This document shows, piece by piece, positions 35,618 through 55,549 of a DNA stretch of 64,000 bases. The DNA is from Candidatus Hydrothermarchaeum profundi. GTDB taxonomy: Archaea; Hydrothermarchaeota; Hydrothermarchaeia; Hydrothermarchaeales; Hydrothermarchaeaceae. The notes beneath the pieces were generated by a model. It made no database searches and was not told the DNA's origin. It saw nothing but the letters and a program-made list of their open reading frames with translations. Made by a program: the position numbers and the translations under genes. The stretch lies in the NCBI GenBank assembly GCA_002011125.2, contig MTMF02000009.1, positions 1,544,989 to 1,608,988 on the forward strand. Reading direction: 5' to 3'. Position 1 is the stretch's first letter. Every line of letters starts with the position of its first letter.

Positions 35618-36418
35618 TTAATGTCCCTCTTTCAACTCTAACTCTTTGCCTCGTTTTAATTCCTCTGAAAGTATCGACGCAACTTTATTCGCATATTCTA
35701 AGACTTTTAGATCATCTCTCGCAACTTCCCATCTCTCCTTAGGGAGATCTATGTCTATAATTTCCTTTATTTTACCAGGCCTTGCTGACATACAAACGAC
35801 TCTTTGAGACAGGTAAACCGCTTCCTCTACATCATGGGTTACAAAAAGTACTGTCTTATTTTCGTTATACCAATATTTTAGTAGTTCAACTTGTAGATAC
35901 CTACGAGTATGCCAGTCTAGTGAACTCGTTGGCTCATCGCAAAGAACAATATCTGGGTCCAGAGCACATACCCTCGCCATTCCCACCATTTGCTTTTGGC
36001 CCTCAGATATCTCATGAGGGTACTTATCCTTAAAATTGTCTACACCTATTATCTTCATCCATTTATCTCCTACTCTCCTCACTTCATCTTTAGGAAGCCC
36101 CTTATTTTCTAATCCAAAGTAAATATTTTCCTGAGCAGTCATCCATGGCAGGAGACGAATATCTTGATAAATAACAGATCTTCGCCAGTCACAATTTTTA
36201 AATACTTTTTCCCCATTAAATAAAACTTCTCCCTCCTGGTAATCTTCAAGACCCGCCGCGATTCTGAGAAATGTGGTCTTACCGCACCCAGAAGGGCCTA
36301 TTATCGATACGAACTCTCCATCATAAATCTCTAAACTCACTCTATCAAGGGCCCATATATCCGGGGGGTATACCTTTGTTAAATTCGTTGCTTTTAAAAT
36401 CACCTTGGAATTATTCAT
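35618..36418 (-). CDS. ABC transporter ATP-binding protein, NitT/TauT/SsuB family
   Basis: GPSGCGKTT, variant signature ISEGQKQ, LCDEP, FVTHDVEEAVYLS. Confidence 0.92.
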   Translation of the reverse strand: MNNSKVILKATNLTKVYPPDIWALDRVSLEIYDGEFVSIIGPSGCGKTTFLRIAAGLEDYQEGEVLFNGEKVFKNCDWRRSVIYQDIRLLPWMTAQENIYFGLENKGLPKDEVRRVGDKWMKIIGVDNFKDKYPHEISEGQKQMVGMARVCALDPDIVLCDEPTSSLDWHTRRYLQVELLKYWYNENKTVLFVTHDVEEAVYLSQRVVCMSARPGKIKEIIDIDLPKERWEVARDDLKVLEYANKVASILSEELKRGKELELKEGH

Positions 36419-37197
36419 GCTTCTACCTCATGCGGACTTTTAGTAAACGCTTCTTCGAATTTGCTTCTAACTGTCTCAACATAATGGGCGCATTCCTTGC
36501 TAAATCTCAGATTTGGAACTTCCCATCTCTTCTCGGGCAAATTAATATCAATTTTATCATAGATCGTACCTGGCAGGGAAGACATGACATAAACCTTCTG
36601 TGAAAGATAGACTGCTTCTTCTAATAAATGGGTCACATATACCACTGTACACCCTTTTTCATGCATTAGCTTTAAAAAGTCATCTGCTATATTACTCCGG
36701 GTCACAAGATCTAACCCGCCTAGTAGCTCATCGCATAATAGAATTGAAGGATTATTAACCATGATCATCGCAATAGTGGCTCTCCTCTGCATACCTCCAG
36801 AAAGCTCATACGGCCATTTTTCAGCAAACTTATCTATACCTAAAGTGGAAAGCCATTGTAGAGCATCTTCCCTAGCTTTTTTCTTATCTACGCCTTTAGA
36901 AATTGGCCCAAAAGTAACGTTATCTATTATCTTCATCCATGGAAAGAGAACAGTTTCTTGGAAAACCATCCCAATTTCAGGACTAGTACCTCTGACTTCT
37001 TTTTCCAGTACTTTGATACTCCCCTCTGAAGGGGTCTCTAGACCTGCGATTAGCCTAAGTAGAGTACTTTTACCGTTAGCCTGAGGCCCAACTATAGAGA
37101 TAAATTCGCCACTATTTACTTCTAGATTTACATTTTTCAAGATATATTCTCCATTCACCGTCTTTTTCCCTAATCCCTTAACTTCGATTGCTTTCAT
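36415..37197 (-). CDS. ABC transporter ATP-binding protein, NitT/TauT/SsuB family
   Basis: Variant Walker A GPQANGKST, LSGGMQRR, LCDEL, VTHLLEEAVYLS. Confidence 0.92.
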   Translation of the reverse strand: MKAIEVKGLGKKTVNGEYILKNVNLEVNSGEFISIVGPQANGKSTLLRLIAGLETPSEGSIKVLEKEVRGTSPEIGMVFQETVLFPWMKIIDNVTFGPISKGVDKKKAREDALQWLSTLGIDKFAEKWPYELSGGMQRRATIAMIMVNNPSILLCDELLGGLDLVTRSNIADDFLKLMHEKGCTVVYVTHLLEEAVYLSQKVYVMSSLPGTIYDKIDINLPEKRWEVPNLRFSKECAHYVETVRSKFEEAFTKSPHEVEA

Positions 37198-37210
37198 GCC
37201 AAATCCCCTT

Positions 37211-38173
37211 TTAAATCCTCCTCATCCACCTTAGGAGCCTTGCTTGAACCATATCAAAACCGAATGTAATCCAGAAAAAGACCCAGAAGGATATCAGTAG
37301 TATAGCGGCTACCACTTTATCAAAATATCCAATATCAGTATGATACATCAAATAGAATCCAAGTCCTGTATGTGCCCCAACCATTTCTCCAGCCGTTAAC
37401 AGCACAAATGCCAAAACGAGGCCAATCAAACACCCAGCAAGAATAGTCGGCATAGCGCTAGGAATAATGATCCTTCTTAATATCCTTTTCTCACTTGCTC
37501 CTAATATTTTTGCAAATTCGATGTACCTTCGGTCTACATTGTAGACTCCAAACAAAGTATTGATGAAAATAGGCCAAAACGCCCCTATATACACCATGAA
37601 AATTATCGCATGGCTTATAGAAGGAAATACAGCAATAGCATATGGCAAATAGACCACCGGAGGCACATGCGCAGTAACTTTCGCAAGAGGGTAAGCCACC
37701 TCAAATCTTCTCATTGTCCTACCAAACCATATACCCCCTGGAATACCTGTAATTAAAGCCAGAAAATATCCGGCAAAAGCTCTAAAAATTGAATCCCTTG
37801 AACTCTTATAAGTTAAGAAGTAAAAATCTGAATAAAAGACATCAAAAACAGTGTTTGGAGAAGGAAAACTGTGAGTATTAAGCTTCCCTATCTTGCCGAC
37901 CACTACAAGCCACAGAAAGAAAAATACTCCAAAGACCAACGCAGCATTCATTACTGTTATCACTCGCGCTTTCGGTTGCTTTTTTAATAAAATTCCGAAT
38001 ACGAGATAAGACAAGAGGATCAAAGTAAAGATCATTATTATAGAATTAAATACCTCTTTAGGCTGATTTGGTCTATTAGCGGCATCTGGCAATGTCACGT
38101 TTAACAAGATTAGGAAAGGCCAAATTAGCAAACCTGCTAATGCTATCACAGCCTCACTCTTAGTTAGTCTCAT
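37211..38173 (-). CDS. ABC transporter permease, NitT/TauT/SsuC family
   Basis: FPSP, FWPIFINTLFGV, EFAKILGAS EAA loop, GEMVGA. Confidence 0.92.
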   Translation of the reverse strand: MRLTKSEAVIALAGLLIWPFLILLNVTLPDAANRPNQPKEVFNSIIMIFTLILLSYLVFGILLKKQPKARVITVMNAALVFGVFFFLWLVVVGKIGKLNTHSFPSPNTVFDVFYSDFYFLTYKSSRDSIFRAFAGYFLALITGIPGGIWFGRTMRRFEVAYPLAKVTAHVPPVVYLPYAIAVFPSISHAIIFMVYIGAFWPIFINTLFGVYNVDRRYIEFAKILGASEKRILRRIIIPSAMPTILAGCLIGLVLAFVLLTAGEMVGAHTGLGFYLMYHTDIGYFDKVVAAILLISFWVFFWITFGFDMVQARLLRWMRRI

Positions 38174-38177
38174 AATC

Positions 38178-39140
38178 TCACTCTACCCTCCTCTGCCATT
38201 TCAATAACCTACTTTGAATTCTATCTGATATACCTGTCCACACTACTACCACAAACGCAATCAAGAAAATAGCAGCGACTATTTTATCATATTCAAATAG
38301 ATCAGCATAATACAGGACATACCATCCTAGTCCTGGTTCAGAGTGAGATCCGCCAATACCCTCTGCCACAGCCAGTACTATGAATGCAAGGACTAACCCA
38401 ATAAATAATCCAGCATAAATAGAAGGTAAAGCTCCGGGGAAAAGTACTTTAGTATACAATCTTTTCTCACTAACACCGAGAGTTCGCGCTGCTTCTATAT
38501 ACTTCACGTCTAGCGTTCTCACACCGTAGATTGTATTAACTATTATCGGCCAAAAGGCACCAATAAAGATGATAAAGAGTACAGCCTGATCAATTTTTGG
38601 GAAAAGTTCTATCGCATAAGGTACAAGTATTATTGGAGGAATCGGAGCAACAACTTTAGCAACAGGATAGTATAATCTATCATGAAGATTTGGATATCTT
38701 CCAACTATTAAGCCCAAGGGAATTGCAAATATAATTGCCACAAAATAGCCAATCGCTAAACGCTTTACAGTAGCTAAAGTACTCTTGACAACTAATAAAT
38801 CAAAGTCCGCTAAATAGTAGTAGAAAACCTGGTTCGGTGATGGCCAACGAAGAGGATCCAAAAATCCTAACTTACCGATTGTGACCAGCCATAAGAAAAA
38901 AATACTCCCAAAAATTAGGGATATATCCATTATGGTCCTAACCCGTGTAGGAGATTGTCTTTTCATAAAGTGCCCATAAACAAGGAAAAACAAGGCAAAT
39001 AAAAAAAATGTAAACATCATGCCGTTAAAAACTAATTTTGGTTGATTGGGCCTATTTGCTGCATCCGGAATAAGATAATTTAATATAATAATCAACAGAA
39101 ATATGGACGTTATCGCCGTATATTTTAAACCTCTTGACAT
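38178..39140 (-). CDS. ABC transporter permease, NitT/TauT/SsuC family
   Basis: WPSP, FWPIIVNTIYGV, EAARTLGVS; paralog of the adjacent permease. Confidence 0.92.
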   Translation of the reverse strand: MSRGLKYTAITSIFLLIIILNYLIPDAANRPNQPKLVFNGMMFTFFLFALFFLVYGHFMKRQSPTRVRTIMDISLIFGSIFFLWLVTIGKLGFLDPLRWPSPNQVFYYYLADFDLLVVKSTLATVKRLAIGYFVAIIFAIPLGLIVGRYPNLHDRLYYPVAKVVAPIPPIILVPYAIELFPKIDQAVLFIIFIGAFWPIIVNTIYGVRTLDVKYIEAARTLGVSEKRLYTKVLFPGALPSIYAGLFIGLVLAFIVLAVAEGIGGSHSEPGLGWYVLYYADLFEYDKIVAAIFLIAFVVVVWTGISDRIQSRLLKWQRRVE

Positions 39141-39274: not shown

Positions 39275-39745
39275 ATGTGGGAAAAGATACTTGTAGCATT
39301 TGATGGCTCATTACAGGCGGAACGGGCAGTTACTATAGCTGGAGACCTCGCGCAAAAATATGGGTCAGAACTGACGATTATAAATGTTTATGACGAAAGG
39401 ATATACGAAGAAATTAATAGGAAGCTTCCAAAAATTGCCTATGAATCAAATGTAGAAAAAAGCTCAATGAGACCTATAGATGAATTTATACGGGATGCTG
39501 AAAAAATCGCAGAAAGTGGTGCAGAGATACTAAAGAACATGAAAGTAGATGTCAAGGTCAACACGGTCGGCAGATTAGGCGACCCCGCTAAGGAGATAGT
39601 TGAGTATGCAAAAGAGGGAAATTTCCAATTAATCATCGTTGGCTATAGAGGAATAACTGGGGTAAAAAGATACCTTATGGGCAGTGTTTCAAGAAAAGTA
39701 GTGGAGCATTCACCGTGCTGTACCCTAGTAACAAAGGTGAAATAA
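39275..39745 (+). CDS. Universal stress protein (UspA family)
   Basis: KILVAFDGS, GDPAKEI, IIVGYRG..MGSVSRKV. Confidence 0.93.
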   Translation: MWEKILVAFDGSLQAERAVTIAGDLAQKYGSELTIINVYDERIYEEINRKLPKIAYESNVEKSSMRPIDEFIRDAEKIAESGAEILKNMKVDVKVNTVGRLGDPAKEIVEYAKEGNFQLIIVGYRGITGVKRYLMGSVSRKVVEHSPCCTLVTKVK

Positions 39746-40783
39746 ATGGCTACTATATCAATGAAAGAACGATTTGAACATGCCTTAACATTGCAGGAAG
39801 TAGACCGCGTTCCAGTAATAGTTCCACTAAATACAGGCATACAAGACTTAATGAAAGCATCAAATTGTTATTGGCCAGATGCCCAACGAGAAAGCGGCAA
39901 AATGATTAAACTAGCGTTAGCGGCTCATGAAATAGCCGGGATCGAGAACGTGACTGTACCCTTTGATAATTTTCTTGAGGTCGAGGCGATGGGATGTAAA
40001 CTAGAAGGGTGGTCAGAAAAAAGCCAACCGAAACCAGTTCCACTAATCGACAATCCGCCTGATTTTAAAAAAATTAGGATACCAAACCCAGAAACAGATG
40101 GAAGGATGCCTATAGTGCTAGAATCGATCCAAAAACTTTCAGGCAATATAGGCGATAAACTTCCTATAATCGCCTATATTTCAGCGCCTTTTGAAATCGT
40201 GTCAACAATTTGGAATCCCAACACTTTGATTAACTATATAGAATATGATACAACGCCTCTTAAGGTTTTATTAGATAAAGTAACATCATTCGTTATTACA
40301 TACGGTAAAGCTCTCGTCAACAGCGGAGCAACAACATTAACGCTAGTTGACGGAAATTCCCAGAATCTTTTTGGTATTGATATGGGTATGGAGTACGCAT
40401 TCGATGGAGTCGAGCCAGAATACTATGAAGAATTTTCATATAAATACGTTAAAAAAGTGATAAAAGCATTGAAAGTTCCTGTGATATACCATGTATGCGG
40501 TGATACTACACCCATACTTGATCACATGGCTGAAACAGGAGCTATGGGCTTGAGTGTTGACCGTGTAGAGATACGTACATGTAAAGAAATAGTTGGAGAT
40601 AATGCGGCGGTTATTGGTAATATTTCGGTCGAAACACTTTGGAAAGGCGCACAAACCGAAATAGAAAAAGAGGCCAAAAGAGCTATTGAACAAGGCGTAG
40701 ATATTCTTGCCCCGGGTTGCAATCTAGTTCCGACAACTCCCCTAGAAAACGTAAGGGCTATGGTCAACACGGTGCTTAAATAA
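39746..40783 (+). CDS. MtaA/CmuA (UroD-fold) corrinoid-dependent methyltransferase
   Basis: VDRVPV, VPFD..EVEAMG, GRMPIV, HVCG, PGC. Confidence 0.88.
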   Translation: MATISMKERFEHALTLQEVDRVPVIVPLNTGIQDLMKASNCYWPDAQRESGKMIKLALAAHEIAGIENVTVPFDNFLEVEAMGCKLEGWSEKSQPKPVPLIDNPPDFKKIRIPNPETDGRMPIVLESIQKLSGNIGDKLPIIAYISAPFEIVSTIWNPNTLINYIEYDTTPLKVLLDKVTSFVITYGKALVNSGATTLTLVDGNSQNLFGIDMGMEYAFDGVEPEYYEEFSYKYVKKVIKALKVPVIYHVCGDTTPILDHMAETGAMGLSVDRVEIRTCKEIVGDNAAVIGNISVETLWKGAQTEIEKEAKRAIEQGVDILAPGCNLVPTTPLENVRAMVNTVLK

Positions 40784-40792: not shown

Positions 40793-41485
40793 ATGACAAA
40801 AAACATAGCAGACCAGATAAAAGATTATGCACTTAAAAATGGGGCAAAACTAGTAGGTATAGCAGATTCAAGATTACTGGATAAAAAAGCCCCACGGGGG
40901 CATAGGCCACAGGACATCTTAAGTGATGCAAAATCTGTAATTGTGGTTGCAGTTCCACAACCTAGGGGGATTATAAGTGATTCATTGCCAACCGAATATA
41001 CTAGGTGCATATACACTGCCGAAATAAAATTAGAACTACTGACATTCGATATATCGAATATAATAGACGAAAAAGGTTACAAATCAATTCCTATACCTGT
41101 TAAAATGGAATATAGCATGGATGTTGAAAAATTAATGGGGGATATATCGCATAAACATGCTGCAGTATATGCTGGACTTGGGCAAATTGGAAAAAATTCT
41201 CTTTTAATAACACCAGAATACGGAAATAGGGTGTACTTGGCATCCATAGTAACCAATGCTCCCATGAGCTACGATATTCCATTTAAGAAACAATTTTGCG
41301 ATAAGGAATGCCAAAAATGTATAGAAGCTTGTCCAGTAAGGGCTATTCCAAAAGATGGAAGTGCCCTAATAGACAAAATGAAATGCTATCTGTATTGTAA
41401 AACTCAAAAGGAGCGCTATCCAATTACGAAGGGCCTATACTCCTGCAGAGAGTGCAGGAGGGTCTGCCCATTTTCAAAAGTTTAG
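40793..41485 (+). CDS. QueG-like (epoxyqueuosine reductase family) cobalamin/4Fe-4S protein
   Basis: SHKHAAVYAGLGQIGKNSLLITPEYG, CQKCIEACP, CRECRRVCP. Confidence 0.82.
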   Translation: MTKNIADQIKDYALKNGAKLVGIADSRLLDKKAPRGHRPQDILSDAKSVIVVAVPQPRGIISDSLPTEYTRCIYTAEIKLELLTFDISNIIDEKGYKSIPIPVKMEYSMDVEKLMGDISHKHAAVYAGLGQIGKNSLLITPEYGNRVYLASIVTNAPMSYDIPFKKQFCDKECQKCIEACPVRAIPKDGSALIDKMKCYLYCKTQKERYPITKGLYSCRECRRVCPFSKV

Positions 41486-41511: not shown

Positions 41512-42777
41512 ATGAAACTTGATCTAAAAGCAAAGCTAGCAGATCCGAAGAATAGAATCTTATTTTTATGTTGCAGTGGCATAGCATTCTCTTGGATTCC
41601 TTGGTTTAATTATTCCGCTGTGCTACCTATATTGAAGGAGGAGTTTAGTTTAACGAGCGCAGAAGCGGGAAAAATCATGGGAGGATTTCAATTAGGCTAC
41701 GTTTTAACTGTATTGATTACAGGAGTAATAGCTGACAAAATAGGAAAAAAACCAATCCTCGTGATTTCATCACTAATTACTGGGGTCGCTTCAATAGCTT
41801 TCGCCTTATTTGCTAAAGACTATTTCTCAGCTTTGATTTTGAGAGTTTTAATAGGTATGGGATGCGGAGGTGTATATGCTCCAGGGTTAGCGCTTCTTTC
41901 AAGTTGGTTTTCACCACGAGCTAGAGGAATGGCTTTCGGTGCATACACCGGGTCTTCTGTCTTTTCCTATGCTCTTGGATACTTCCTAACTGCACCTATT
42001 GCAGCTGTAGGGGGATGGCAGAAGGGCATATTATTTACATCCTATCCCGTTTTCATTGCTGTGTTATTTTTTGGTTTAGTAAAAGAACCGCTTACGTCAG
42101 ATTCTAGTCGAATAGAGGACTCACCACTCATGTCTGTTAAGAATATACAATTAGTCCCTCTAATCTTGATTACAATTGCTTACATGGCACACATGTGGGA
42201 ACAATTTGCTTTTTGGGGATGGGTAGGCCCTTATCTCTCAGCAGCAGGGGTTACCCATGGGATGGGCAAAGAGGAAGCCTTAACAATAGGCGGATTAATA
42301 GCTTCTATTACTATAATGATGGGTGTGTTTTCTCCATTTATAGGAGGTAAAATATCTGATAAATTAGGTCGAACTTTTACTGCGGCTTTTTTTTCTATAT
42401 TAAGCGCGATCTGTTCTTTTATTTTTGGCTGGCTAATTATAAAACCGTTTAATACAATCGTTGTCGCTAGCCTGATTTATGGATTTTTCGTAGTAGCGGA
42501 TTCTGCAATCTATAAAGCCGGTTTATCTGAAATGGTTCCTTCAACTTTTTTAACGAGCGCTCTAGCAATTCAATCAGCTGCCGGATTTGGAGCCGCAATA
42601 ATTTCTCCAGGTATATTTGGAATCATCCTAGATTTTACCAACACATCCTCAAGCATTCAAATCCCGTGGGGATGGGCGTTTGTGAGTTTAGGAATAGGTT
42701 CACTAATCAGCCCAATATGCCTAAGTATTCTGAGGTCTCACCCCCATAGTACTGCTATGACATCTGGAAAAAGATAG
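41512..42777 (+). CDS. MFS transporter
   Basis: About 12 TM helices, GVIADKIGKK and GKISDKLGR motif A. Confidence 0.93.
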   Translation: MKLDLKAKLADPKNRILFLCCSGIAFSWIPWFNYSAVLPILKEEFSLTSAEAGKIMGGFQLGYVLTVLITGVIADKIGKKPILVISSLITGVASIAFALFAKDYFSALILRVLIGMGCGGVYAPGLALLSSWFSPRARGMAFGAYTGSSVFSYALGYFLTAPIAAVGGWQKGILFTSYPVFIAVLFFGLVKEPLTSDSSRIEDSPLMSVKNIQLVPLILITIAYMAHMWEQFAFWGWVGPYLSAAGVTHGMGKEEALTIGGLIASITIMMGVFSPFIGGKISDKLGRTFTAAFFSILSAICSFIFGWLIIKPFNTIVVASLIYGFFVVADSAIYKAGLSEMVPSTFLTSALAIQSAAGFGAAIISPGIFGIILDFTNTSSSIQIPWGWAFVSLGIGSLISPICLSILRSHPHSTAMTSGKR

Positions 42778-43015: not shown

Positions 43016-43687
43016 CTAATTTTTCTTTCCTTCTTCGATTCCCATTAACCTTTTAGCTACTATAACCGCATCAAAAGCATCCTCACCGTATCCATCTGCT
43101 CCAATCCTATCTGCATACTCTTGAGAGAGAGGGGCGCCGCCGATAAGTACTTTATATTTATCTCTCAGGCCTTTTTGTTTTAATAGTTCAATTAAATTCT
43201 TTGTTTGGTCCATTGTAGTGGTTAGCAGAGCACATGCTGCAATAATGTCAGCGTTTACTTTTTCAGCTTCTTCGATGAATTTTTCTAATGGAACATCAAT
43301 GCCTAAATCGTAAACCTCAAACCCCGCTGCCGTTAGAGCACTTTCTACCATATTCTTCCCAATATCATGGATATCATTTTGAACTGTACCAAAAACAATT
43401 CTTCCTAGCTTTTCACCTTTACCAAATTCTTTTGCAGCTTTCTCCTCGAGCTTAGGTTTCAGTACCTCAAACCCCGCCTTAAAAGCATGAGCACTTAAAA
43501 GCATTTCGGTGATAAAATATTCTCCTTTATTAAATTTCTCGCCTACGACTTGCATAGCATCGCTCATAGTTTTAACAATGACGTCCACGTCAATATTATC
43601 CTCTAGAGCTTTTTTAACCACGTCAGGTACTTCCGCTCTTTTACCTGCAATTACCAGCTCAGATAATTGTTTCAAAATTTCACTCAT
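43016..43687 (-). CDS. Methyltransferase cognate corrinoid protein
   Basis: DIHDIGKN B12-binding motif, LLTTTM, IGGAP. Confidence 0.94.
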   Translation of the reverse strand: MSEILKQLSELVIAGKRAEVPDVVKKALEDNIDVDVIVKTMSDAMQVVGEKFNKGEYFITEMLLSAHAFKAGFEVLKPKLEEKAAKEFGKGEKLGRIVFGTVQNDIHDIGKNMVESALTAAGFEVYDLGIDVPLEKFIEEAEKVNADIIAACALLTTTMDQTKNLIELLKQKGLRDKYKVLIGGAPLSQEYADRIGADGYGEDAFDAVIVAKRLMGIEEGKKN

Positions 43688-48119: not shown

Positions 48120-49064
48120 TTAGGTATTTGGTTTAGACCTAAGGAAATCCCAGAAGTCCTTGAGAATAGGAGACCTTTTGCAAAGACCTCTATTACAAAC
48201 CGCGTAAAATTTTCTAGTTGTATCGCCAACACCAGAAATTTTTAATAGTTTAATTTTACGGCCCTCCCGCATAGCTTTTTCAACAGGCAACGAACATATG
48301 ATTCCTATTCCAAGCCCGTTCTCTATTGCCGTGAGAATGGTTCCAGGCCAATCTAAATGAGCTACAACATTAAAATCAGAGTAATCATATCCTCCCCTCT
48401 CCAAGAATCTCCCAACATCCATATATAATTCAGAGTAAGGCTGTGGTGATAAAAATGGATAGTGTCTAATATCTTCCAGCGATACTCTTGACCTATCTGA
48501 AAGTTCATGATCCGAGGGGACTGCAAGTACAAGTTCATCCTGACCAATTACCATTTTTTTACATTTTTGTTTAATAAAATCGTTATTTAGCTTCGCCTTA
48601 GTAAGGCATATTATATCATATTCATCCTTCTTTAATTTTTCAATTAGAGATTTCATTTCCTCGATTTTCAATTCAATTTTTTTTACAGACGCATTGTCCC
48701 TATATTTTTCTAAATAGTTTGGAAGTATATAAAGCCCTGGAACAACGGGAGCCCCGATATGTAGTTCTTGCAGTTGATCATCATGCATTCTATTAACTTT
48801 TTGTAGTGAATCATTATATATATCCAAAAGCGATTTTGCGGTTTCAAGAATTATTTTACCCCCCTCAGTTAATTCAACTCCTTTTTGAGTTCTTTTAAAA
48901 GCTTTTACGCCATATGCCTCCTCTAAGGCTGCTATCCTCATGCTCACAGTACTTTGAGCTAAGTTAAGCTCTTTAGCTGCCTCTAATATTCCTTTTTTAT
49001 TAGAAACAAGTATAAAAGTTTCAAAATATTCTAATTTTAAATTTTTCATTATTTTCGATATCAT
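48120..49064 (-). CDS. LysR-family transcriptional regulator
   Basis: AAKELNLAQSTVSMRIAALEE..FKRT..LTEGG HTH plus substrate-binding domain; start may be ATG 49049. Confidence 0.92.
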   Translation of the reverse strand: MISKIMKNLKLEYFETFILVSNKKGILEAAKELNLAQSTVSMRIAALEEAYGVKAFKRTQKGVELTEGGKIILETAKSLLDIYNDSLQKVNRMHDDQLQELHIGAPVVPGLYILPNYLEKYRDNASVKKIELKIEEMKSLIEKLKKDEYDIICLTKAKLNNDFIKQKCKKMVIGQDELVLAVPSDHELSDRSRVSLEDIRHYPFLSPQPYSELYMDVGRFLERGGYDYSDFNVVAHLDWPGTILTAIENGLGIGIICSLPVEKAMREGRKIKLLKISGVGDTTRKFYAVCNRGLCKRSPILKDFWDFLRSKPNT

Positions 49065-49169: not shown

Positions 49170-50117
49170 TTACCGTTTTTTCAGCGCATCCACAAAATCG
49201 GAGTAAAGCTTATTTATTGGATGCGAAGGATCTTCAGGTAAAAACTCTGTTTCTTCGAACACAAAAGTTGAGAGCATTGAGTTTGCTGTTGCTATAGCCG
49301 GGAACATCCACTTAGAACTCTCAATAGGCCCATATAGGAGGAAGTCATTCCAGAAAATCGCAGATATCGCGTGTGCAGCTGAGTCTACCCCTGCAAAGCC
49401 CAGTTTACCCCACATGCCCTCTTGAGTCTTCTTGACAAGATCTGTACCATTAGATGGGGCGCATCCTACTGGAAATCCGAAGGTTTCCTTAACTAATTTA
49501 CTCCCTAGTAGCGAGAAAGGAGTTGACGGAATTGTCATAACGGAAGTATCCGCCAAGAAGTTCTTGAACCCTGCCTCCTTCGCCCAAGGTAAAAGCTTAT
49601 CTCGAATTAGTTCTATTCTGCCTTGAGGAGTTGGATTTTCCTGGTTGAATGCTACCATAAGAACATTTTTAAGACCAATATTCTTTAACTCAGATATTTC
49701 TCTTTCGGGATCTTTACTCCACGGCGCTATGCTGTTATATAGATGCCGATCTTGCAACCCCATCTCAGCTATAATCTTAGCAGCTCCAATTTTTGGTTCT
49801 ACCGTCCAAATATCCGTAGTAAAAGGCATGTCACTTACACTCGTAACGAACTCTATATACCGCCTTGCTTCCTCAGCACTATTAGCAACTAGATCAACCA
49901 TACATGGAAGCCCGGTTTGGTCTGAGAGTTCCTCCTGTTTGTTTATAAGCTCTTCTGCTTTTTTCTTGTCGAATTTTCCTTCTTTTCTACTTTCCAGTAT
50001 TTTATGCCCGTTGTAAAACATCGTTCCAATGAGCACCAAAGGATTTTCCCCTGGCTGCCCACCGATTTTAACATTTCCTATTTTGCATACTTTTTGCTCT
50101 TTTTCAAATCTAAACAT
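49170..50117 (-). CDS. mtrH: MtrH-family pterin methyltransferase, stand-alone
   Basis: MFRFEKEQKV..IGGQPGENPLVLIGTMFYNGH, GCAPSNG, LLYGPIE. Confidence 0.88.
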   Translation of the reverse strand: MFRFEKEQKVCKIGNVKIGGQPGENPLVLIGTMFYNGHKILESRKEGKFDKKKAEELINKQEELSDQTGLPCMVDLVANSAEEARRYIEFVTSVSDMPFTTDIWTVEPKIGAAKIIAEMGLQDRHLYNSIAPWSKDPEREISELKNIGLKNVLMVAFNQENPTPQGRIELIRDKLLPWAKEAGFKNFLADTSVMTIPSTPFSLLGSKLVKETFGFPVGCAPSNGTDLVKKTQEGMWGKLGFAGVDSAAHAISAIFWNDFLLYGPIESSKWMFPAIATANSMLSTFVFEETEFLPEDPSHPINKLYSDFVDALKKR

Positions 50118-50123: not shown

Positions 50124-52076
50124 TCACCTTGGTATCTTATCTAGGATATCTTGGATATGCGGGAATTTATCTTTCATATGCGGAAAGTGCATCGCCATCA
50201 TAAACTCTGTCTGGAAATCAGGATCTACTGTAAGCTCTATATATCTAATTCTTCTCGCTATTTTATCAGCTTCCTTTCTCTTTTGTTTATTTAATAGTGC
50301 TATCCTAGCACCGTCTCCCGCTGCATTCCCGATTGCCTTTACTTTTTTAAGATCACAATCTGGGAACATGCCTATTACCATACTAGCTTCTTTATCTATG
50401 TAACTTCCAAAGGCACCGGCTAATAAAACTCTGTCTACTTCATTTACTCCGTATCTCTTCATTAGAATCTTGCTACCTGTGTAAAGTGCTGCTTTTGCTA
50501 ACTGCATTGCTCTAACGTCGCCTAAGGTAACAGTGATATCTTTATTGATAGAAGTCTCTTCTTTCCAAGCAAGTACGTATTCTGGCTCCCCTTTTTCATT
50601 CTTCCGTATTCTCTTGGTTTTCTCTTGCAAATCCATGTTAAACGTGCCGTTCTTCTTTATTATGCCGGCTTTGAACATCTCAGCTATAACTTCTATTATA
50701 CCAGAGCCGCATATACCTCTCGCATCTATTTTCTCAATATGGGTATGCCAGTCTGCTTTTCCAATTACCTTGTACTTAGGCTCTAATGTCTCGGGATCTA
50801 TTCTAACTCTTTCTATTGCTCCTGGAGCAGCTCTCATACCAAATTTTATCTGTGCTCCCTCAAATGCGGGTCCAGTAGCGCATGATGTAGAAAATAGTTT
50901 TTCTTTGTTTCCTAGAACTATCTCACCATTTGTACCTATATCTATTATAAGTTGAAGAATATCCTTTTTATGAGGCTCTGTTGCAACTACGACACCCATG
51001 TTGTCAGCGCCTACGAAACCGGCCTCGTTAGGCAGTACATGTGCGTATGCCCCTGGAGCTGCCTTTAGACCCATATCCCTCGCCTTTACGTCTACTGAAT
51101 GATGAGTCGCAGGCGGGAATGGAGCAAGTCCTACATATTCAGGATTAATATCTAAGAATATATGGTGCATGCAAGTGTTTCCTACCAACACAAGCTCAAG
51201 GATGTCTTCAGGAGTAAGCCCAACTTCCTTAGTAACGTTTTGTATGATTTTGTTTAATCCCTTCTTGATTGCCTCGTTCATCTTTTTTAGTCCGTCTTCG
51301 TGAGTCATCGCATAAGTAATCCTAGCCATTACGTCCTCTCCATACGGTACTTGAGGATTCATCATAGAATCTACTGCAAGGACCTTGCCGGTATCTAAAT
51401 CTGTTAGATAGCCTACCACAGTAGTTGTACCCACATCTATAGCTAACCCAACTCTCTGCTCATGATATCCTGGTCGGATATTTACGATCTCCTTATCATA
51501 TCTTACATCTACTGTAACTTTCCACTCTCCTTCTCTGAGAACATCAGGCAGTCTCTTTAACACCATGTAATCAATAGTCAAATTCTTTAAATTGTGGATA
51601 TCGCTAAGTCCTGCCATCAGCCTCTCTAAGTCGCCCACCGGATCTTCAAGTGTTGGAGGGTTTAGTTCAAGATAATATTTTTTGATAACTGGATCTAGTC
51701 TTATTTTTATATCGGCAGCAGTCTTTCTGACAATCTGCCCTCCACCCCGGCTTTCCTCCGGTACAAAGACTAATAAGTCGCCATGAATCGTAGTATTACA
51801 GGATAGTCTATAGCCAGATTCGATTTCTTCTTTTGTGAGTTTTTTCTTTTCTTGTTCTAACAGAGGCGATGTATGTTTCATGCTGGATTCAATACCGAAT
51901 TTCTCGAAGAATCCCTCGTGAATCTGCACCTTGCATTTCCCACAAGTTAATTTACCACCGCATACCGACTCGATGTCAACTCCTAATTCTTGAGCGGCCT
52001 CTCTTATCGTTTTTCCGTCTTCTACCTCTCCGCGTCTGCCAGATGGTTGGAAAATGACCTTATGCATCTCCACCAT
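50124..52076 (-). CDS. Reductive activator of corrinoid proteins (RACo/DUF4445, 2Fe-2S plus ASKHA ATPase)
   Basis: CGGKLTCGKC..RLSC, DVGTTT, NPQVPYGEDVMARI, DIGTNGE, ATGPAFEG, GICGSG, GNAAGDGA. Confidence 0.92.
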   Translation of the reverse strand: MVEMHKVIFQPSGRRGEVEDGKTIREAAQELGVDIESVCGGKLTCGKCKVQIHEGFFEKFGIESSMKHTSPLLEQEKKKLTKEEIESGYRLSCNTTIHGDLLVFVPEESRGGGQIVRKTAADIKIRLDPVIKKYYLELNPPTLEDPVGDLERLMAGLSDIHNLKNLTIDYMVLKRLPDVLREGEWKVTVDVRYDKEIVNIRPGYHEQRVGLAIDVGTTTVVGYLTDLDTGKVLAVDSMMNPQVPYGEDVMARITYAMTHEDGLKKMNEAIKKGLNKIIQNVTKEVGLTPEDILELVLVGNTCMHHIFLDINPEYVGLAPFPPATHHSVDVKARDMGLKAAPGAYAHVLPNEAGFVGADNMGVVVATEPHKKDILQLIIDIGTNGEIVLGNKEKLFSTSCATGPAFEGAQIKFGMRAAPGAIERVRIDPETLEPKYKVIGKADWHTHIEKIDARGICGSGIIEVIAEMFKAGIIKKNGTFNMDLQEKTKRIRKNEKGEPEYVLAWKEETSINKDITVTLGDVRAMQLAKAALYTGSKILMKRYGVNEVDRVLLAGAFGSYIDKEASMVIGMFPDCDLKKVKAIGNAAGDGARIALLNKQKRKEADKIARRIRYIELTVDPDFQTEFMMAMHFPHMKDKFPHIQDILDKIPR

Positions 52077-52078: not shown

Positions 52079-52762
52079 TTAGATCTCTCCTTTCTTTTTC
52101 ATTTCTCTCAAGGTTGATACCATCCTTAGGGCTTCTGAAAGAGCATTGCTGGCATCTGGAGCATATCCGTCTGCACCATACTTTTTGGCTATATCCTCGG
52201 ACAAGGGGGCTCCGCCAAGAAGGATCAAGACGTTTGGGTTCTTTTCTTTGATTTTTTCTACTACTTTTTTCATTCCAACCATAGTGGTTGTCATCATAGC
52301 AGACAGAGCGACAATATCAGAATCAGTTCTCATCTGCTCTTCTACGAATTTCTCTAATGGAACATCCTTTCCAAGGTCGTGGACTGTAAATCCAGCAGTT
52401 TCAAACATGAGCTTTACTATGTTCTTTCCTATGTCATGCACGTCTCCTTCTACCGTACCAATGACTACTTCTCCTTTTAACCTCTCTTTACTTTCGTCGA
52501 TCTTGACATGGGGTCTAAGTATATCCAATCCAGCGTAAAGGGCATCTGCGCACATTAGAACTTCTGGAACAAAGTACTCATTTTTCTCAAAGAGATCACC
52601 TACAACTTCCATTCCTGCAGCAAGTCCTTCGAAAATTCCTTCGTTGGCGTCAAACCCGTTTTTTATCCACTCTTCTGCGGCCTTTTTAACCCTCTCTTCA
52701 TCATAATTAATTACCCCCTCCTTGAGTTCCTCTAAAAGCTCCTTCTTTTTATCTTCACTCAT
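52079..52762 (-). CDS. Methyltransferase cognate corrinoid protein
   Basis: GTVEGDVHDIGKN, SAMMTTTM, GGAP. Confidence 0.94.
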   Translation of the reverse strand: MSEDKKKELLEELKEGVINYDEERVKKAAEEWIKNGFDANEGIFEGLAAGMEVVGDLFEKNEYFVPEVLMCADALYAGLDILRPHVKIDESKERLKGEVVIGTVEGDVHDIGKNIVKLMFETAGFTVHDLGKDVPLEKFVEEQMRTDSDIVALSAMMTTTMVGMKKVVEKIKEKNPNVLILLGGAPLSEDIAKKYGADGYAPDASNALSEALRMVSTLREMKKKGEI

Positions 52763-52774: not shown

Positions 52775-53797
52775 CTATGAAAGTTTTCCATATTTTTCAG
52801 TAGCTTCAACAAGTGCTTTCATATTTTCTGGTGGAACGTCTGGCCAGATGTCACATCCAGGCCATATGCCGTTAACGCCTTTTTCAATCACATCTTTAAC
52901 CGCATTTTCTACATCTTGTACTGTGCCCTGGACTAGTACATTATAAGGATCTAAGTTACCTAACAATATCGTATCATCCCCTATCTTCTGTCTCGTTTGA
53001 ACTAAATCATTCTTTTGGTCAACACTTATTGCATCTGCGCCACATTCATTCATTAGCTCAACTATTGGATTTGTATTTCCACATATGTGAAGGATCCTTG
53101 GCGCTTCAATTCCTTCTATGGTCTTAATTAAATGAGGCTGAACTAGTGTTTTAAACATTCTGGGACTAATAACATCCGAAGGTGCTCCCATTTCTCTGAT
53201 CGTAATATAATCGGCACCTGCTTCTTTTTCTAGTTTGGCGACTCTGGTAGCAACGTCTACTAATCCAGTTAAAATCCTGTTTACATCATCTGGCCTTTTG
53301 AAAGATATTTTTAGAAGCTCATTAAGATCCATTATCTGCCCGGCTAGAGTGAATGGTCCAAGAACATATGATCCAATTGGAACTTCATCCCCAATATCAT
53401 CTTTAAGCAACCCTATGACCTCTTTAATCATTGGGAGTCTTCCTCTTTCTTCAAGATCATCAGGGATATTAACTTCATCTCCCGCTTTCACCAGCTTTGT
53501 TTTTATAGTTGGATAAAGTATATTGTCCTCAACATGAGCATACCAGTTGATTTCAGATCCCAAAGCCTCTGCTTCTAGACATAAGTCGAATGGCACTACT
53601 GCGCACTCGTACCCATATAGCTTATAAGTTGATGCCGCGAGCTTTGCCATATCTTCCGCGTTTTTATGCACTTCTGCAAACTTTATGTTGTACTTTTTCA
53701 TTCCCTCTACCGTGACGTTCCCCATTCCACTAAAACACGGTACCCGGTCTATTTTTTCCTTTTTAAGTAATCCTAAAACTCTTTCTTTTGGTGTCAT
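52775..53797 (-). CDS. MtaA/CmuA-family methyltransferase
   Basis: MTPKERV..IDRVP, VPFDLCLEAEALG, GPFTLAG, LHICG, PGCD; start ATG 53797 (track 53848). Confidence 0.9.
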   Translation of the reverse strand: MTPKERVLGLLKKEKIDRVPCFSGMGNVTVEGMKKYNIKFAEVHKNAEDMAKLAASTYKLYGYECAVVPFDLCLEAEALGSEINWYAHVEDNILYPTIKTKLVKAGDEVNIPDDLEERGRLPMIKEVIGLLKDDIGDEVPIGSYVLGPFTLAGQIMDLNELLKISFKRPDDVNRILTGLVDVATRVAKLEKEAGADYITIREMGAPSDVISPRMFKTLVQPHLIKTIEGIEAPRILHICGNTNPIVELMNECGADAISVDQKNDLVQTRQKIGDDTILLGNLDPYNVLVQGTVQDVENAVKDVIEKGVNGIWPGCDIWPDVPPENMKALVEATEKYGKLS

Positions 53798-53880
53798 CTT
53801 ATTTCTCTCCCGATATTCAAAATTTTTCTTCTGCACCATGTGGAACATTTTTTCTTGCTATAGAATATAGAATTCCACAT
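53794..53880 (-). CDS. Candidate 28-aa leader peptide (uORF)
   Basis: AGGAGG RBS, MWNSIFYSKKKCSTWCRRKILNIGREIR, stop overlaps the methyltransferase ATG (ATGA). Confidence 0.4.
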   Translation of the reverse strand: MWNSIFYSKKKCSTWCRRKILNIGREIR

Positions 53881-54031
53881 GGTCTTCCTCCTTACCCTCT
53901 CTTAAACTGATATTTAAATTTTACTGATAATTTTAAATACTATTTACAAATAATCACTTATTGGTTGAACAAAAATACATATAAATTGGTATTAAAATTT
54001 ATAAAAATTAGACAAATTCCAAGGGAAGAAT

Positions 54032-54541
54032 ATGTTAAAGATAGATGAAAAAGATATAAAAATTTTAAGATGCATTGACGAAGTAGGAAACTCAAATATC
54101 GATGAAATTGCTAAGATGACCAATATCTCCCGCTCCACTATTCACTACAGACTGAAGAAATACCAAGAGTCAGGTATAATTAAGGGAACATTAGTGGATT
54201 TAGACCCTATAGAACTTGGATTAGATATAACCGCGATAATCCTCGTAAATGCCGTTTATGAGAAGATATATGCAGAAGAACTTGGAGAAAAGCTATCAAA
54301 AATACCGGGTGTTATATCTGTATATTATGTTCTTGGTGGAGTAGACTTTATACTTATTTGCAAAGCTATGGACCGAGAAGACCTCAAAAGAGTTTTAAGA
54401 GACATCAACTCAACGGAAGGTGTAATAAGGACAGGGACCCACTTTGTCGCTGCAACTATCAAAGAAGAGAAAAGGATCTTAGTTAATTACCCAGAAGAAA
54501 TGCTTAAAAAACTTTTTTATTCTAAGTTGAACAGGAAGTGA
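54032..54541 (+). CDS. Lrp/AsnC-family transcriptional regulator
   Basis: IDEKDIKIL..EIAKMTNISRSTIHYRLKK..GII plus RAM domain. Confidence 0.92.
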   Translation: MLKIDEKDIKILRCIDEVGNSNIDEIAKMTNISRSTIHYRLKKYQESGIIKGTLVDLDPIELGLDITAIILVNAVYEKIYAEELGEKLSKIPGVISVYYVLGGVDFILICKAMDREDLKRVLRDINSTEGVIRTGTHFVAATIKEEKRILVNYPEEMLKKLFYSKLNRK

Positions 54542-54547
54542 ATTCTT

Positions 54548-55549
54548 ATGACACCCAAAGAGAGATTTATGAAGGCTCTGAACCTTCAAAAAGTTGACAG
54601 GCCACCTGTCACCTGCGCTAATCAAACCGCCACCCTTGATCAAATGGAGAAAATAGGGATTTACTGGCCAGAGGCGCACAAAGACCCTTTCAAAATGGCT
54701 AGATTAGCTGCGGCTGCGTGGGAACAATTAGGACTAGAAGGCGCTGGAGTCCCCTTTTGTCAAACAGTTGAAGCAGAAATTTTTGGATGCGAGATAAAAT
54801 GGGGCAGAAAGAAGACAGATATTCCTCAGGCACCCTCTAAGGGATACAAATCCCCTGATGGAGTAAAGGTTCCAGAAAACATTTTAGAGAAAGGCAGAAT
54901 CCCGGTTGTCCTGAAAGCTATTGAGCTACTTAGCGATAAATATGGAGGAGAAATCCCCATATATGGGCATGTGATAGGCCCTTTCTCCCTAGCAGCACAT
55001 TTAGCAGGAATGGAAAAGATCATGGTAACCGCATTCAAGAACCCAGATGTTGTTAACGAGTTCACTCATCTCGGGGTTGATACTATAGCTGAATACGGGA
55101 ATGCGATGTTTGATCATGGAGCAGATGTAGTAGTAATAGAGAATATGTTTGCTTCTGTAGATATAATGGGGCCCCAAGGGTATGCTAGAGTGGCTGCTCC
55201 ATATGATAAGGAATTGATAAACAAGTTGAAGGGACCTACAGTACTCCATGTATGTGGAAATGGGACTTTGATCATAGAAGACATGATAAAGACGGGTGCA
55301 ACATGTATAAGCATCGATAGTAGAACCGATGCTAAAAAATCGGTTATTGCTGCAAAGAGGAAGGCTGCAATAATGGGGAATGTGGATACCATGAAGGTTC
55401 TCACGTATGGAACACCTGAGGGAGTGAAAACTGATACTATGAGGGCAATCGAAGCAGGTATCGACATAGTTGCTCCGGGTTGCGCTATTTCTCCTTTAAC
55501 TCCTAACAAGAATCTAAAGGCGATGGTGGATACCGTTAAGATGTTATAA
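54548..55549 (+). CDS. MtaA/CmuA-family methylcobamide:thiol methyltransferase
   Basis: VDRPPV..NQTAT, WPEAH, VPFCQTVEAE, GPFSLA, LHVCG, APGC; closest to MtaA/MtbA of the four. Confidence 0.9.
   Translation: MTPKERFMKALNLQKVDRPPVTCANQTATLDQMEKIGIYWPEAHKDPFKMARLAAAAWEQLGLEGAGVPFCQTVEAEIFGCEIKWGRKKTDIPQAPSKGYKSPDGVKVPENILEKGRIPVVLKAIELLSDKYGGEIPIYGHVIGPFSLAAHLAGMEKIMVTAFKNPDVVNEFTHLGVDTIAEYGNAMFDHGADVVVIENMFASVDIMGPQGYARVAAPYDKELINKLKGPTVLHVCGNGTLIIEDMIKTGATCISIDSRTDAKKSVIAAKRKAAIMGNVDTMKVLTYGTPEGVKTDTMRAIEAGIDIVAPGCAISPLTPNKNLKAMVDTVKML

Follow-up and report, generated by a model that had tools for sequence, protein, structure and literature searches.

A cluster of genes for corrinoid-dependent methyl transfer was analysed in a 64,000-nt stretch of the genome of Candidatus Hydrothermarchaeum profundi (MTMF02000009.1:1,544,989-1,608,988, assembly GCA_002011125.2), which is called the window throughout. 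Its central part is a predicted operon that joins a zinc-thiol methyltransferase, a corrinoid carrier, an ATP-dependent activase and a pterin methyltransferase, and that was repeatedly encountered in combination with genes for C2 sulfonates and for a disulfide-reductase-like protein pair. On balance, and with little to spare, we think it probable that these genes specify a soluble corrinoid network which moves methyl groups between tetrahydromethanopterin (H4MPT) and a thiol of the coenzyme M (CoM) type, without the Mtr complex and without Mcr. All positions given below refer to the window unless C8 or C9 is indicated. The methyl-transfer genes are located between 35.6 and 55.5 kb (the island), and the sulfonate and heterodisulfide reductase (Hdr)-like genes between 27.3 and 33.6 kb (the upstream block). 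The four UroD-fold proteins of the island are designated UroD1 to UroD4 in map order, and the two corrinoid proteins CP1 and CP2.

The window is part of a 1.9-Mb contig, and the genome of 2.19 Mb is 97.65% complete. Gene families were assigned by Pfam and NCBIfam profile searches, and NCBIfam scores were judged against the curated cut-offs. All genes listed in the initial annotation of the island were recovered by these searches and in the translations (Table 1). Missing from that list were a gene for a universal stress protein (Usp), a gene for a tandem cupredoxin protein, and the complete upstream block, which is encoded on the minus strand and ends up immediately upstream of the first island genes. 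In an independent DNA run (X2, from another study), contigs cover 30 of 30 bins between positions 36000 and 55900. The pieces listed showed no differences and bridge UroD1-QueG-like-MFS-CP1 as well as RACo-CP2-UroD3. Among sequencing runs containing the operon, four DNA runs and no RNA run were found. The possibility that the island is a degenerate remnant was rejected, since all frames are open, the operon is conserved in two domains, and the independently obtained DNA pieces are identical.

The genes UroD3-CP2-RACo-MtrH2, separated by 12, 2, and 6 bases only, would constitute the core of the system. Other tight gene rows in the island are UroD2-CP1, which overlap, Usp-UroD1-QueG-like-MFS, binding protein-cupredoxin-MtrH1, and Lrp-UroD4. 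Judged by their sequences, the four UroD proteins are methyltransferases of the zinc-thiol (MtaA/MtbA) kind. A thiol-type assignment had been made before from an H-x-C...C motif with a later GC in each of the four proteins, and it is borne out by the zinc triad, the best relatives and the position in a tree. In an alignment of 148 sequences, the His, Cys, and Cys residues of all four proteins are found in the zinc-ligand columns of MtaA, in which the true HemE of the genome has Y/A/H. The triad is retained in 85 of 87 UroD3-type sequences and in all sequences of the UroD4 type (15/15) and of a CobW-linked type (24/24). In this superfamily, according to the sections available of PMC10418091, His-Cys-Cys marks methyltransferases acting on sulfur or selenium, and O-demethylases carry a carboxylate for a Cys or no ligands. 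The best solved relative of all four proteins is MtaA of Methanosarcina mazei (4ay7), with the zinc ligands aligned; the E values are 1.4e-65 for UroD4, 7e-53 for UroD3, 6.8e-52 for UroD1, and 1.6e-17 for UroD2. CdmB was matched by UroD2 (E 5.7e-5) and UroD1 (E 9.5e-4), and not at E <= 0.001 by UroD3 or UroD4. The cut-off of the MtaA/CmuA subfamily (TIGR01463, 235.4) was passed by UroD1, UroD3, and UroD4 and failed by UroD2.

For the tree, 54 of the 148 sequences were removed because they were at least 80% identical to a retained one, leaving 94 rows, which were analysed by a quick IQ-TREE run with SH-aLRT support and rooted on HemE. The MtaA and MtbA references originated from methanogen genomes and were verified by the NCBIfam equivalog cut-offs. 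UroD4 and a paralogue linked to the pyl genes of the same genome fell inside the MtaA/MtbA clade of 21 rows (support 95), and UroD1 appeared as a long branch beside it. UroD3 belongs to a clade of its own, which comprises 46 rows (support 100) and is the sister of MtaA/MtbA, while UroD2 was placed in a clade of 11 rows (support 100) together with the CobW-linked UroD of the genome and the second UroD of the Nitrospirota clusters described below. In total, nine UroD-family genes are present in the genome. At C9:1159-1165 kb, a corrinoid protein gene is flanked by two of them and followed by two genes for AAA ATPases; the H/C/C triad is present in both UroD proteins, which form basal branches of the tree, and neither RACo nor MtrH is encoded there. 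The gene for the true HemE (443 bits) at C8:76-82 kb is located beside genes for ferrochelatase, a HemY-like amine oxidase and a radical SAM/SPASM protein, which together represent a late haem pathway of the bacterial type, here encountered in an archaeon.

The two MtrH genes of the island are the only matches to PF02007 in the genome. MtrA (PF04208) had no match in the genome, and MtrB to MtrG were not searched. The MtrH proteins had been proposed to act alone, and these results agree with that proposal. McrA was likewise not found in the genome, and the H4MPT branch is represented by two Mer proteins above the cut-off and by CdhC, from which methyl-H4MPT is taken to be a real intermediate. 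That genes for MtaB, MttB, MtbB, and MtmB are absent is correct for the island. In the genome only MtaB was not found: outside the window, one MttB, two MtbB, and one MtmB gene contain a single in-frame TAG, and another MtmB-like gene has no in-frame stop. A complete pyrrolysine system, consisting of tRNA-Pyl and the pylS, pylB, pylC, and pylD genes, is also present in this archaeon without McrA. The combination of mcr with genes for methyltransferase 1 (MT1) elsewhere in the genome had been named as an indication that the island encodes ordinary methyltransferase 2 (MT2) enzymes. MT1 genes do exist, and the pyl-linked MtbA-like protein clusters with UroD4, but mcr is absent. Genome studies of the phylum have described mtrH in the absence of mcr and, for one member, methylamine methyltransferases (PMC6775978, PMC6946796); the context of cysteate synthase and ComDE is not treated in the passages of these papers that were available.

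In the upstream block, cysteate synthase and a fused sulfopyruvate decarboxylase (ComDE) are encoded, followed by an SsuA-like protein, with neighbouring ends overlapping by four bases each. These genes are 19 kb away from the UroD3-CP2-RACo-MtrH2 operon. According to the part available of PMC12713407, the phosphoserine route, by which Methanosarcinales and Methanomicrobiales form the CoM precursor sulfoacetaldehyde, has cysteate synthase and ComDE as its signature enzymes. For the SsuA-like protein, the sole match among PDB entries was weak (3un6, E 8e-4). The HdrD-like protein contains two CCG domains and Fer4 and is encoded beside its cytochrome-b-like membrane partner; for this candidate HdrDE-type pair, the matches to TfrB, DsrK, HdrB, and QmoC are all below the cut-offs. 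Between this pair and the genes of the ATP-binding cassette (ABC) transporter, at 33670-35565 on the minus strand, an AhpC/TSA-like thioredoxin-fold protein, a protein of 201 residues ending in CDC, and a DUF4352 protein are encoded. Along with the small c-type cytochrome (30738-31148), these proteins are a hint of a thiol/redox branch outside the cytoplasm.

Comparisons with other genomes revealed that the operon is not confined to the window. UroD3-CP2-RACo-MtrH2 recurs in other Hydrothermarchaeota contigs with 58-78% identity; MtrH2 itself is 73% identical to a protein of Candidatus Pyrohabitans and 60-62% identical to Hydrothermarchaeota proteins. In one locus from another family of the phylum (L186), operon and sulfonate genes form a single row, UroD3-CP2-RACo-MtrH2-cysteate synthase-ComDE-SsuA-like, with ends abutting or overlapping, and genes for HdrD, cytochrome b, and a CMD/AhpD-like protein are arranged divergently from it. 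In a third genus (L188), the operon is again accompanied by the Lrp-UroD4 pair, after which cytochrome b, DUF6951, and CobW are encoded. SsuA-like homologues with 45-58% identity were detected beside ComDE in five loci (L086, L087, L093, L186, L187), HdrD homologues with 40-58% identity in related clusters, and cytochrome-b homologues with 31-42% identity beside HdrD in L005, L086, L087, L186, and L188.

The same association is present in bacteria. In Nitrospirota metagenome-assembled genomes and in eight metagenome contigs, the methyl-transfer, sulfonate, and Hdr-like genes are contained in one cluster, which specifies a UroD of the CobW-linked type, a CMD-like protein, MtrH, a UroD3-type protein, a corrinoid protein, a QueG-like protein, and RACo, as well as DUF6951, cytochrome b, HdrD, cysteate synthase, ComDE, and often an SsuA-like protein. 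Cysteate synthase above the cut-off is encoded within the cluster or at its edge in all five Nitrospirota genomes, in none of which McrA or the MttB family was found (0/5 each). The best conserved accessory part is the CMD-like protein, which matches AhpD-like proteins only and is 63-84% identical between archaea and bacteria. In the genome of H. profundi, a row at C9:1473-1477 kb consists of genes for a CobW/ZigA-like GTPase, an H/C/C UroD, a CMD/AhpD-like protein, DUF6951, and a dihydropteroate-synthase-like protein (TIGR00284 above the cut-off), the first four of which belong to the extended cluster in its Nitrospirota version. In the Nitrospirota clusters, genes for QueG-like homologues (28-34% identity) separate those of the corrinoid protein and RACo. 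A metagenome locus (L113) contains a UroD1-like gene followed by a QueG-like one, along with genes for a UroD3-type, a UroD4-like and a corrinoid protein and a divergent RACo gene; QueG-like proteins are thus recurrent partners of the methyltransferases outside the Nitrospirota clusters too.

Among 29 metagenome loci of the UroD3 type with at least 3 kb on both sides, adjacent genes for the corrinoid protein, RACo, and MtrH were present in 23, 27, and 25, respectively, and all three were adjacent in seven of seven genome loci. A set of 38 genomes of the phylum, own genome included, was searched for cysteate synthase above the cut-off and for an MtrH2 orthologue, defined by at least 57% identity. 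Cysteate synthase was detected in 14 genomes and an MtrH2 orthologue in 19; both were present in 13, cysteate synthase only in one, and the orthologue only in six. The MttB family was confined to one of the 38, the own genome. The link between operon and sulfonate genes recurs in different gene orders across two domains, and chance or shared descent alone does not explain this well.

From these data we infer the following enzymatic steps, nature of the thiol, flux direction, and physiological role. MtrH2 would exchange methyl groups between methyl-H4MPT and the cobalt of CP2, the His/Cys/Cys zinc site of UroD3 would exchange them between CP2 and a thiol, and RACo would reduce CP2 again upon oxidation. 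The thiol is most likely CoM or a close two-carbon sulfonate thiol, for which the adjoining cysteate synthase and ComDE would provide the sulfoacetaldehyde precursor and which the HdrD/cytochrome-b pair, perhaps also the CMD/AhpD-like protein, would hold in the reduced state. Because MMP16 is missing, the conversion of sulfoacetaldehyde to the thiol is tentatively assigned to one of the conserved proteins without known function or to an uncatalysed reaction with sulfide. A CoM-type cofactor made by the cell is considered more likely than an imported thioether, since the linkage with cysteate synthase, ComDE, HdrD, and cytochrome b is conserved in Hydrothermarchaeota and Nitrospirota. The sulfonate-type ABC transporter may bring in a cofactor rather than a food molecule; counterparts of the binding protein and the ABC genes were not detected in the related loci examined, which places import outside the conserved system. 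UroD1, UroD2, UroD4, CP1, and MtrH1 may represent paralogous branches for other thiols or corrinoid partners. UroD4 and its pyl-linked paralogue are likely MT2 enzymes of the pyrrolysine-dependent methylamine systems and would load CoM with methyl groups. With no Mtr, the MtrH operon is the sole candidate for a bridge from CoM to H4MPT.

Methyl transfer from methyl-H4MPT to CoM was reportedly put at about -30 kJ/mol by Thauer in 1998, and a soluble system should consequently favour the direction from pterin to thiol. A strong pull is required for the reverse, which was the direction originally suggested and on which an oxidation of methylamines via CoM would depend. In the 12 other Hydrothermarchaeota with both cysteate synthase and the MtrH2 orthologue and in the five bacteria, a search that covered MttB alone among the MT1 families found none, and the default direction in these genomes therefore seems to be from pterin to thiol. 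The methyl thioether formed could be consumed by a second UroD, with transfer to sulfide or methanethiol, or by the QueG-like B12 iron-sulfur protein.

Several results weigh against a CoM-based network of this kind. None of the four UroD proteins reached the equivalog cut-off for MtaA (NF040654, 400) or MtbA (NF041608, 600). The highest scores, those of UroD4, were 331.1 and 286.3, while methanogen reference proteins score 411-548 and 604-661, respectively. MtaA accepts many thiols, as stated in the part available of PMC13618148, and the UroD sequences can therefore not name the thiol. The final enzyme of the phosphoserine route to CoM is MMP16/ComF (PMC12068725, sections available). It was not found in the genome by TIGR03287, for which the best score of 26.8 bits came from a ferredoxin domain at model positions 288-357, and it was found in none of the five Nitrospirota genomes at E <= 1e-10. 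ComA was not found in the genome either, and the route as present thus ends at sulfoacetaldehyde and not at CoM. Without McrA and MtrA, no known consumer of methyl-CoM exists, and the cycle cannot be closed with known enzymes. In addition, the core operon has a broader distribution than its association with the sulfonate genes. Of the six genomes with only the MtrH2 orthologue, two are 96% complete. Counted by genus, kin not being independent, both features occur in seven, cysteate synthase only in one, the orthologue only in five, and neither in eight. Where metagenome loci extend at least 8 kb to either side of the UroD3-type gene, the full core was contained in 9 of 14, and cysteate synthase or ComDE only in 4 of 14. 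From these loci and from the 6 of 19 MtrH2 genomes without cysteate synthase, it follows that the core operon can exist without nearby sulfonate genes.

In another explanation of the island, dimethyl sulfide, methanethiol, methylmercaptopropionate or methyl-CoM could be imported and demethylated by the UroD proteins acting as MT1. The corrinoid proteins and MtrH would hand the methyl group on to H4MPT, to be oxidised or used in acetyl-CoA synthesis. MtsA and MtpA, which belong to the MtaA family, demethylate thioethers, and the zinc-thiol type of the enzymes, the importers in the island (a NitT/TauT-type ABC system with an exported binding protein, and MFS), the joint gene row of the binding protein and MtrH1, and the presence of the H4MPT branch with CdhC fit such scavenging. 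The UroD proteins could also be the entry point in genomes that have the operon but no MttB, a family missing in 37 of 38 genomes of the phylum set and in all five Nitrospirota genomes. However, transfer from a thioether to the pterin reportedly requires about +30 kJ/mol under standard conditions. Methanogens use the sodium gradient via Mtr for this step; MtrA was not found here, and the pull or coupling that would be needed is not evident in the genes. Moreover, the conserved neighbours point to sulfonate biosynthesis and disulfide reduction and not to catabolism, and in the related loci examined nothing corresponds to the ABC genes, the binding protein, or the cupredoxin protein. Of the route from imported methyl compounds through corrinoids to a pterin, as originally suggested, the parts and the H4MPT branch are therefore present, but the conserved sulfonate context favours a home-made thiol and the direction would be uphill. 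We regard scavenging as rather unlikely for the system as a whole; for the parts specific to this genome, which are the binding protein, ABC transporter, MFS, UroD1, UroD2/CP1, and MtrH1, it may apply. The original suggestion had also admitted O-methyl substrates, and this option is unlikely. Methoxydotrophy as in Methermicoccus shengliensis and Archaeoglobus fulgidus, with O-demethylation of methoxylated aromatics and methyl transfer to H4MPT, relies on the same architecture of a UroD-superfamily methyltransferase, a corrinoid protein, a 2Fe-2S activase, an MtrH-like protein, and MFS (PMC8630106, PMC8359953, as far as available). In the passages available of PMC8630106, MtoB is related to MtvB and clusters apart from MtaA/CmuA, whose cut-off three of the UroD proteins pass; CdmB, the closest MtoB relative according to the part of PMC13222342 at hand and used as a proxy for MtoB itself, is matched weakly or not at all compared with MtaA; and His-Cys-Cys is a signature for sulfur and selenium, not oxygen. 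An Mto-type O-demethylase is thus the least likely of the alternatives.

A split methionine synthase, non-homologous to the known ones, would combine a zinc protein for homocysteine (UroD), a pterin protein (MtrH), a corrinoid protein, and RACo to form methionine from methyl-H4MPT. These four parts would parallel the four modules of MetH, the direction from pterin to thiol is said to be thermodynamically favoured, and neither the MetE-type domain (PF01717) nor the MetH-type homocysteine domain (PF02574) was found in the own genome; in the phylum set they were above the cut-off in 5 of 38 and 0 of 38 genomes. If the operon replaced these enzymes, the two should exclude each other, but an anticorrelation was not observed, most genomes of the set having neither domain whether they carry the operon or not: PF01717 exceeded the cut-off in 3 of 19 genomes with the MtrH2 orthologue and in 2 of 19 without, and 14 genomes had neither the orthologue nor any PF01717 match at E <= 0.001. 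The linked genes for cysteate synthase, ComDE, and HdrD would also be left unexplained, and this function appears very unlikely. There is a slightly slimmer chance still that the island salvages methylated selenium or sulfur compounds, a function suggested for type 1 mlp clusters and the sdm genes of Methanococcus voltae. The gene content with several His-Cys-Cys MtaA-like proteins, a corrinoid protein, and a bacterial-type activase is similar (PMC10418091, sections available), and the best NCBIfam match of the LysR regulator is a selenium metabolism-associated LysR (179 bits). This match is below the cut-off of 250, tRNA-Sec was not among the 45 tRNAs detected by ARAGORN, and type 1 clusters, as described in the same sections, lack a pterin methyltransferase, while two MtrH genes are present in the island.

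A bolder extension of the CoM-based network, to which we assign only a marginal probability, is that Hydrothermarchaeota and anaerobic Nitrospirota run a CoM-based terminal pathway that dispenses with methyl-CoM reductase. The Wood-Ljungdahl pathway may supply methyl-H4MPT (or methyl-folate), whose methyl group MtrH would transfer to the corrinoid protein and the MtaA-like enzyme to the CoM-type thiol. The resulting thioether may then be disposed of by the QueG-like protein, a second UroD, the CMD/AhpD-like protein, and DUF6951, which could be achieved by reductive cleavage or by transfer to sulfide, giving methanethiol. Finally, the membrane-bound HdrD/cytochrome-b pair may regenerate the thiol and tie the cycle to the quinone pool. 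If true, this would mean a new energy metabolism or mode of methyl disposal and a new last step of CoM synthesis in place of MMP16.

Table 1. Genes of the upstream block and the island, and methylamine-related loci elsewhere in the genome
Feature	Position	Strand	Profile matches and remarks
SsuA/NMT1-like protein, cytoplasmic (no signal peptide)	27327..28247	-	Pfam NMT1_2; SsuA_fam 92 bits, below 163.5
Fused sulfopyruvate decarboxylase ComDE	28244..29353	-	TIGR03846 236.1 (cut-off 221.5); TIGR03845 182.9 (cut-off 147.95)
Cysteate synthase	29350..30606	-	TIGR03844 495.4 (cut-off 324.9)
Small c-type cytochrome, signal-like N-terminus	30738..31148	-	Pfam Cytochrom_C
Small Cys-rich open reading frame, 84 aa, after HdrD	31199..31453	-	68% identical homologue beside HdrD in locus L186; without family assignment
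HdrD/TfrB/DsrK-like iron-sulfur protein	31455..32729	-	Pfam CCG (two) and Fer4_8; best NCBIfam TfrB 162.6, below 385
Membrane cytochrome-b-like partner (DsrM/HdrE/QmoC C-terminal type)	32778..33569	-	weak QmoC match, 35.9 bits
Two ABC ATPases, NitT/TauT (sulfonate/taurine/nitrate) type	35618..37197	-	Pfam ABC_tran; best NCBIfam SaoA and taurine ATPase, both below cut-off
Two ABC permeases, NitT/TauT type	37211..39140	-	Pfam BPD_transp_1; NtrB, TauC, SaoP, SsuC matches all below cut-off
Usp, universal stress protein	39275..39745	+	Pfam Usp; stop abuts UroD1 start; heads row Usp-UroD1-QueG-like-MFS
UroD1, MtaA/CmuA-family methyltransferase, HVC...GC	39746..40783	+	TIGR01463 260 (cut-off 235.4); MtaA equivalog 262 (below 400)
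QueG/reductive-dehalogenase-like protein, short form, 230 aa, two 4Fe-4S motifs	40793..41485	+	TIGR00276 76.9 and TIGR02486 67.6, both below cut-off
MFS transporter	41512..42777	+	Pfam MFS_1
CP1, corrinoid protein	43016..43687	-	Pfam B12-binding and B12-binding_2; D-x-H-x-x-G motif
UroD2, divergent MtaA-like methyltransferase, HMC...GC	43680..44843	-	TIGR01463 169.1, below 235.4
Substrate-binding protein, NMT1_2/SsuA-like	44959..46278	+	Pfam NMT1_2; SsuA_fam 50.1, below 163.5
Membrane-anchored tandem cupredoxin protein	46304..47101	+	Pfam Cupredoxin_1; NosZ C-terminal and nitrosocyanin-like matches below cut-off
MtrH1, stand-alone MtrH-family pterin methyltransferase	47167..48087	+	Pfam MtrH 299 bits; PRK00979 326.7 (cut-off 287); TIGR01114 285.9 (cut-off 271.4)
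LysR-family regulator	48120..49064	-	Pfam HTH_1, LysR_substrate; best NCBIfam NF040786 179 bits, below 250
MtrH2, MtrH-family methyltransferase, last gene of conserved operon	49170..50117	-	PRK00979 377 (cut-off 287)
RACo-type corrinoid reductive activase, N-terminal 2Fe-2S	50124..52076	-	Pfam Fer2, RACo_linker, Raco_middle, RACo_C_ter
CP2, corrinoid protein	52079..52762	-	Pfam B12-binding and B12-binding_2; D-x-H-x-x-G motif
UroD3, MtaA-like putative zinc-thiol methyltransferase, HIC...GC, first operon gene	52775..53848	-	TIGR01463 266.3 (cut-off 235.4)
Lrp/AsnC regulator, divergent from operon	54032..54541	+	Pfam
UroD4, most MtaA/MtbA-like of island, HVC...GC	54548..55549	+	TIGR01463 325.5; PRK06252 369.2; MtaA equivalog 331.1, below 400
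pyl locus	C9:1317-1323 kb		tRNA-Pyl 1321583-1321652, pylS, pylB, pylC, pylD, beside MtbA/MtaA-like UroD
Methylamine methyltransferase genes	C9:239781-241148, 1059694-1061034, 1878793-1900310		MttB, two MtbB, MtmB (one in-frame TAG each), MtmB-like gene without in-frame stop

Among the remaining genes of the island, the QueG-like protein matches QueG (5d08) with residues 115-229 (E 1.9e-17). The binding protein has a twin-arginine, lipobox-like N-terminus (SRREFIK...LSGC) and was counted as exported. The cupredoxin protein encoded between it and MtrH1 consists of two near-identical repeats (HEHTFNIDEYNIH ... C-x4-H), and a homologue was not found in any related locus compared. Farther upstream in the window, at 10414-13977 on the plus strand, an open frame of 1187 residues without Pfam match is flanked by genes for KaiC-like ATPases, ParA/MinD-like ATPases, and two-component sensors.

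CoM is regarded as a cofactor that archaea use in methane or alkane metabolism and a few bacteria in the oxidation of alkenes, and the genes for its biosynthesis serve as markers of these metabolisms. In the present case, the signature gene pair of the phosphoserine route is linked to methyltransferases of the methanogen CoM type, an MtrH-like enzyme, and an Hdr-like pair, in one relative within the same operon. The organisms concerned lack McrA and MtrA in the case of H. profundi and McrA in the case of the bacteria. That an archaeon unable to make methane shares this pairing with bacteria points to an undescribed use of CoM. If the thiol is CoM, non-methanogens make and methylate it, and annotation pipelines that read MtaA, MtrH, ComDE, and Hdr as remnants of methanogenesis need revision. 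A soluble, Mtr-independent link between pterin and CoM would be testable with four proteins, and another CoM synthase and another fate of methyl-CoM must then exist. With its full set of pyrrolysine methylamine methyltransferases, the archaeal host is also a good case for non-methanogenic methylotrophy. Each part belongs to a known kind; what is new is their combination in the absence of Mcr and Mtr. A paper joining cysteate synthase/ComDE to MtrH or corrinoid methyltransferases in non-methanogens was not found in a literature search whose scope excluded supplements and subscription journals, and CoM, methyltransferase, MtrH, or heterodisulfide were not mentioned in the Nitrospirota genome papers examined.

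The soluble CoM methyltransferase systems of methylotrophic methanogens (MtaA, MtbA, MtsA/MtsB, MtpA/MtpC) also consist of UroD-fold His/Cys/Cys enzymes and small corrinoid proteins. UroD4 falls inside the MtaA/MtbA clade, whereas the UroD3 type forms a separate one and no island protein attains the equivalog cut-offs. In contrast to the methanogens, the host has neither McrA nor MtrA, the other partner in the island is MtrH-like instead of an MT1 enzyme, and the activase is of the bacterial 2Fe-2S RACo type and not RamA. A fused corrinoid/MtaA-like protein of Methanosarcina acetivorans, CmtA, is reported to transfer methyl groups between methyl-pterin and CoM without Mtr. With MtoABCD, as far as it is covered in the passages available, the island shares a UroD-superfamily methyltransferase, a corrinoid protein, a RACo-type activase, a lone MtrH-like protein, and MFS in one cluster. 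The product proposed for Mto is methyl-H4MPT, formed in an Mtr-independent step (PMC8630106, PMC8359953). MtoB is MtvB-related in these passages, while the island enzymes are MtaA-like with His/Cys/Cys, and the sulfonate-thiol genes and the Hdr-like pair linked to the island are not mentioned in them. Type 1 mlp clusters (Kountz and Balskus preprint, PMC10418091) and sdm of M. voltae likewise combine several His/Cys/Cys MtaA-like proteins with a corrinoid protein and a bacterial-type activase in non-methylotrophs, for which methyl transfer involving sulfur or selenium was proposed. They differ from the island, with its two MtrH and its sulfonate genes, in having no pterin methyltransferase and, in the sections available, no link to cysteate synthase/ComDE.

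The upstream block has its counterpart in the phosphoserine-dependent (class II) CoM pathway of Methanosarcinales and Methanomicrobiales, which comprises cysteate synthase (MA3297), ComDE (MA3298), and MMP16/ComF (MA3299). The genes for cysteate synthase and fused ComDE are adjacent and overlapping in H. profundi too, and the pair was also seen in two named methanogen genomes. Here MMP16 was not found, and an SsuA-like protein and the HdrD/cytochrome-b pair are attached instead; neither was found near the gene pair in one of the methanogen loci, and the other locus ends right after ComDE. The survey by Chadwick et al. (PMC12068725, sections available) covers MCR/ACR-encoding archaea only. The Mtr complex (MtrA-H), finally, has an MtrH-family subunit in common with the island, for which the same overall reaction between methyl-H4MPT, a corrinoid, and CoM is proposed. 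MtrA was not found, the island contains no sodium-pumping part, and the putative carrier and CoM-side enzyme are unrelated soluble proteins.

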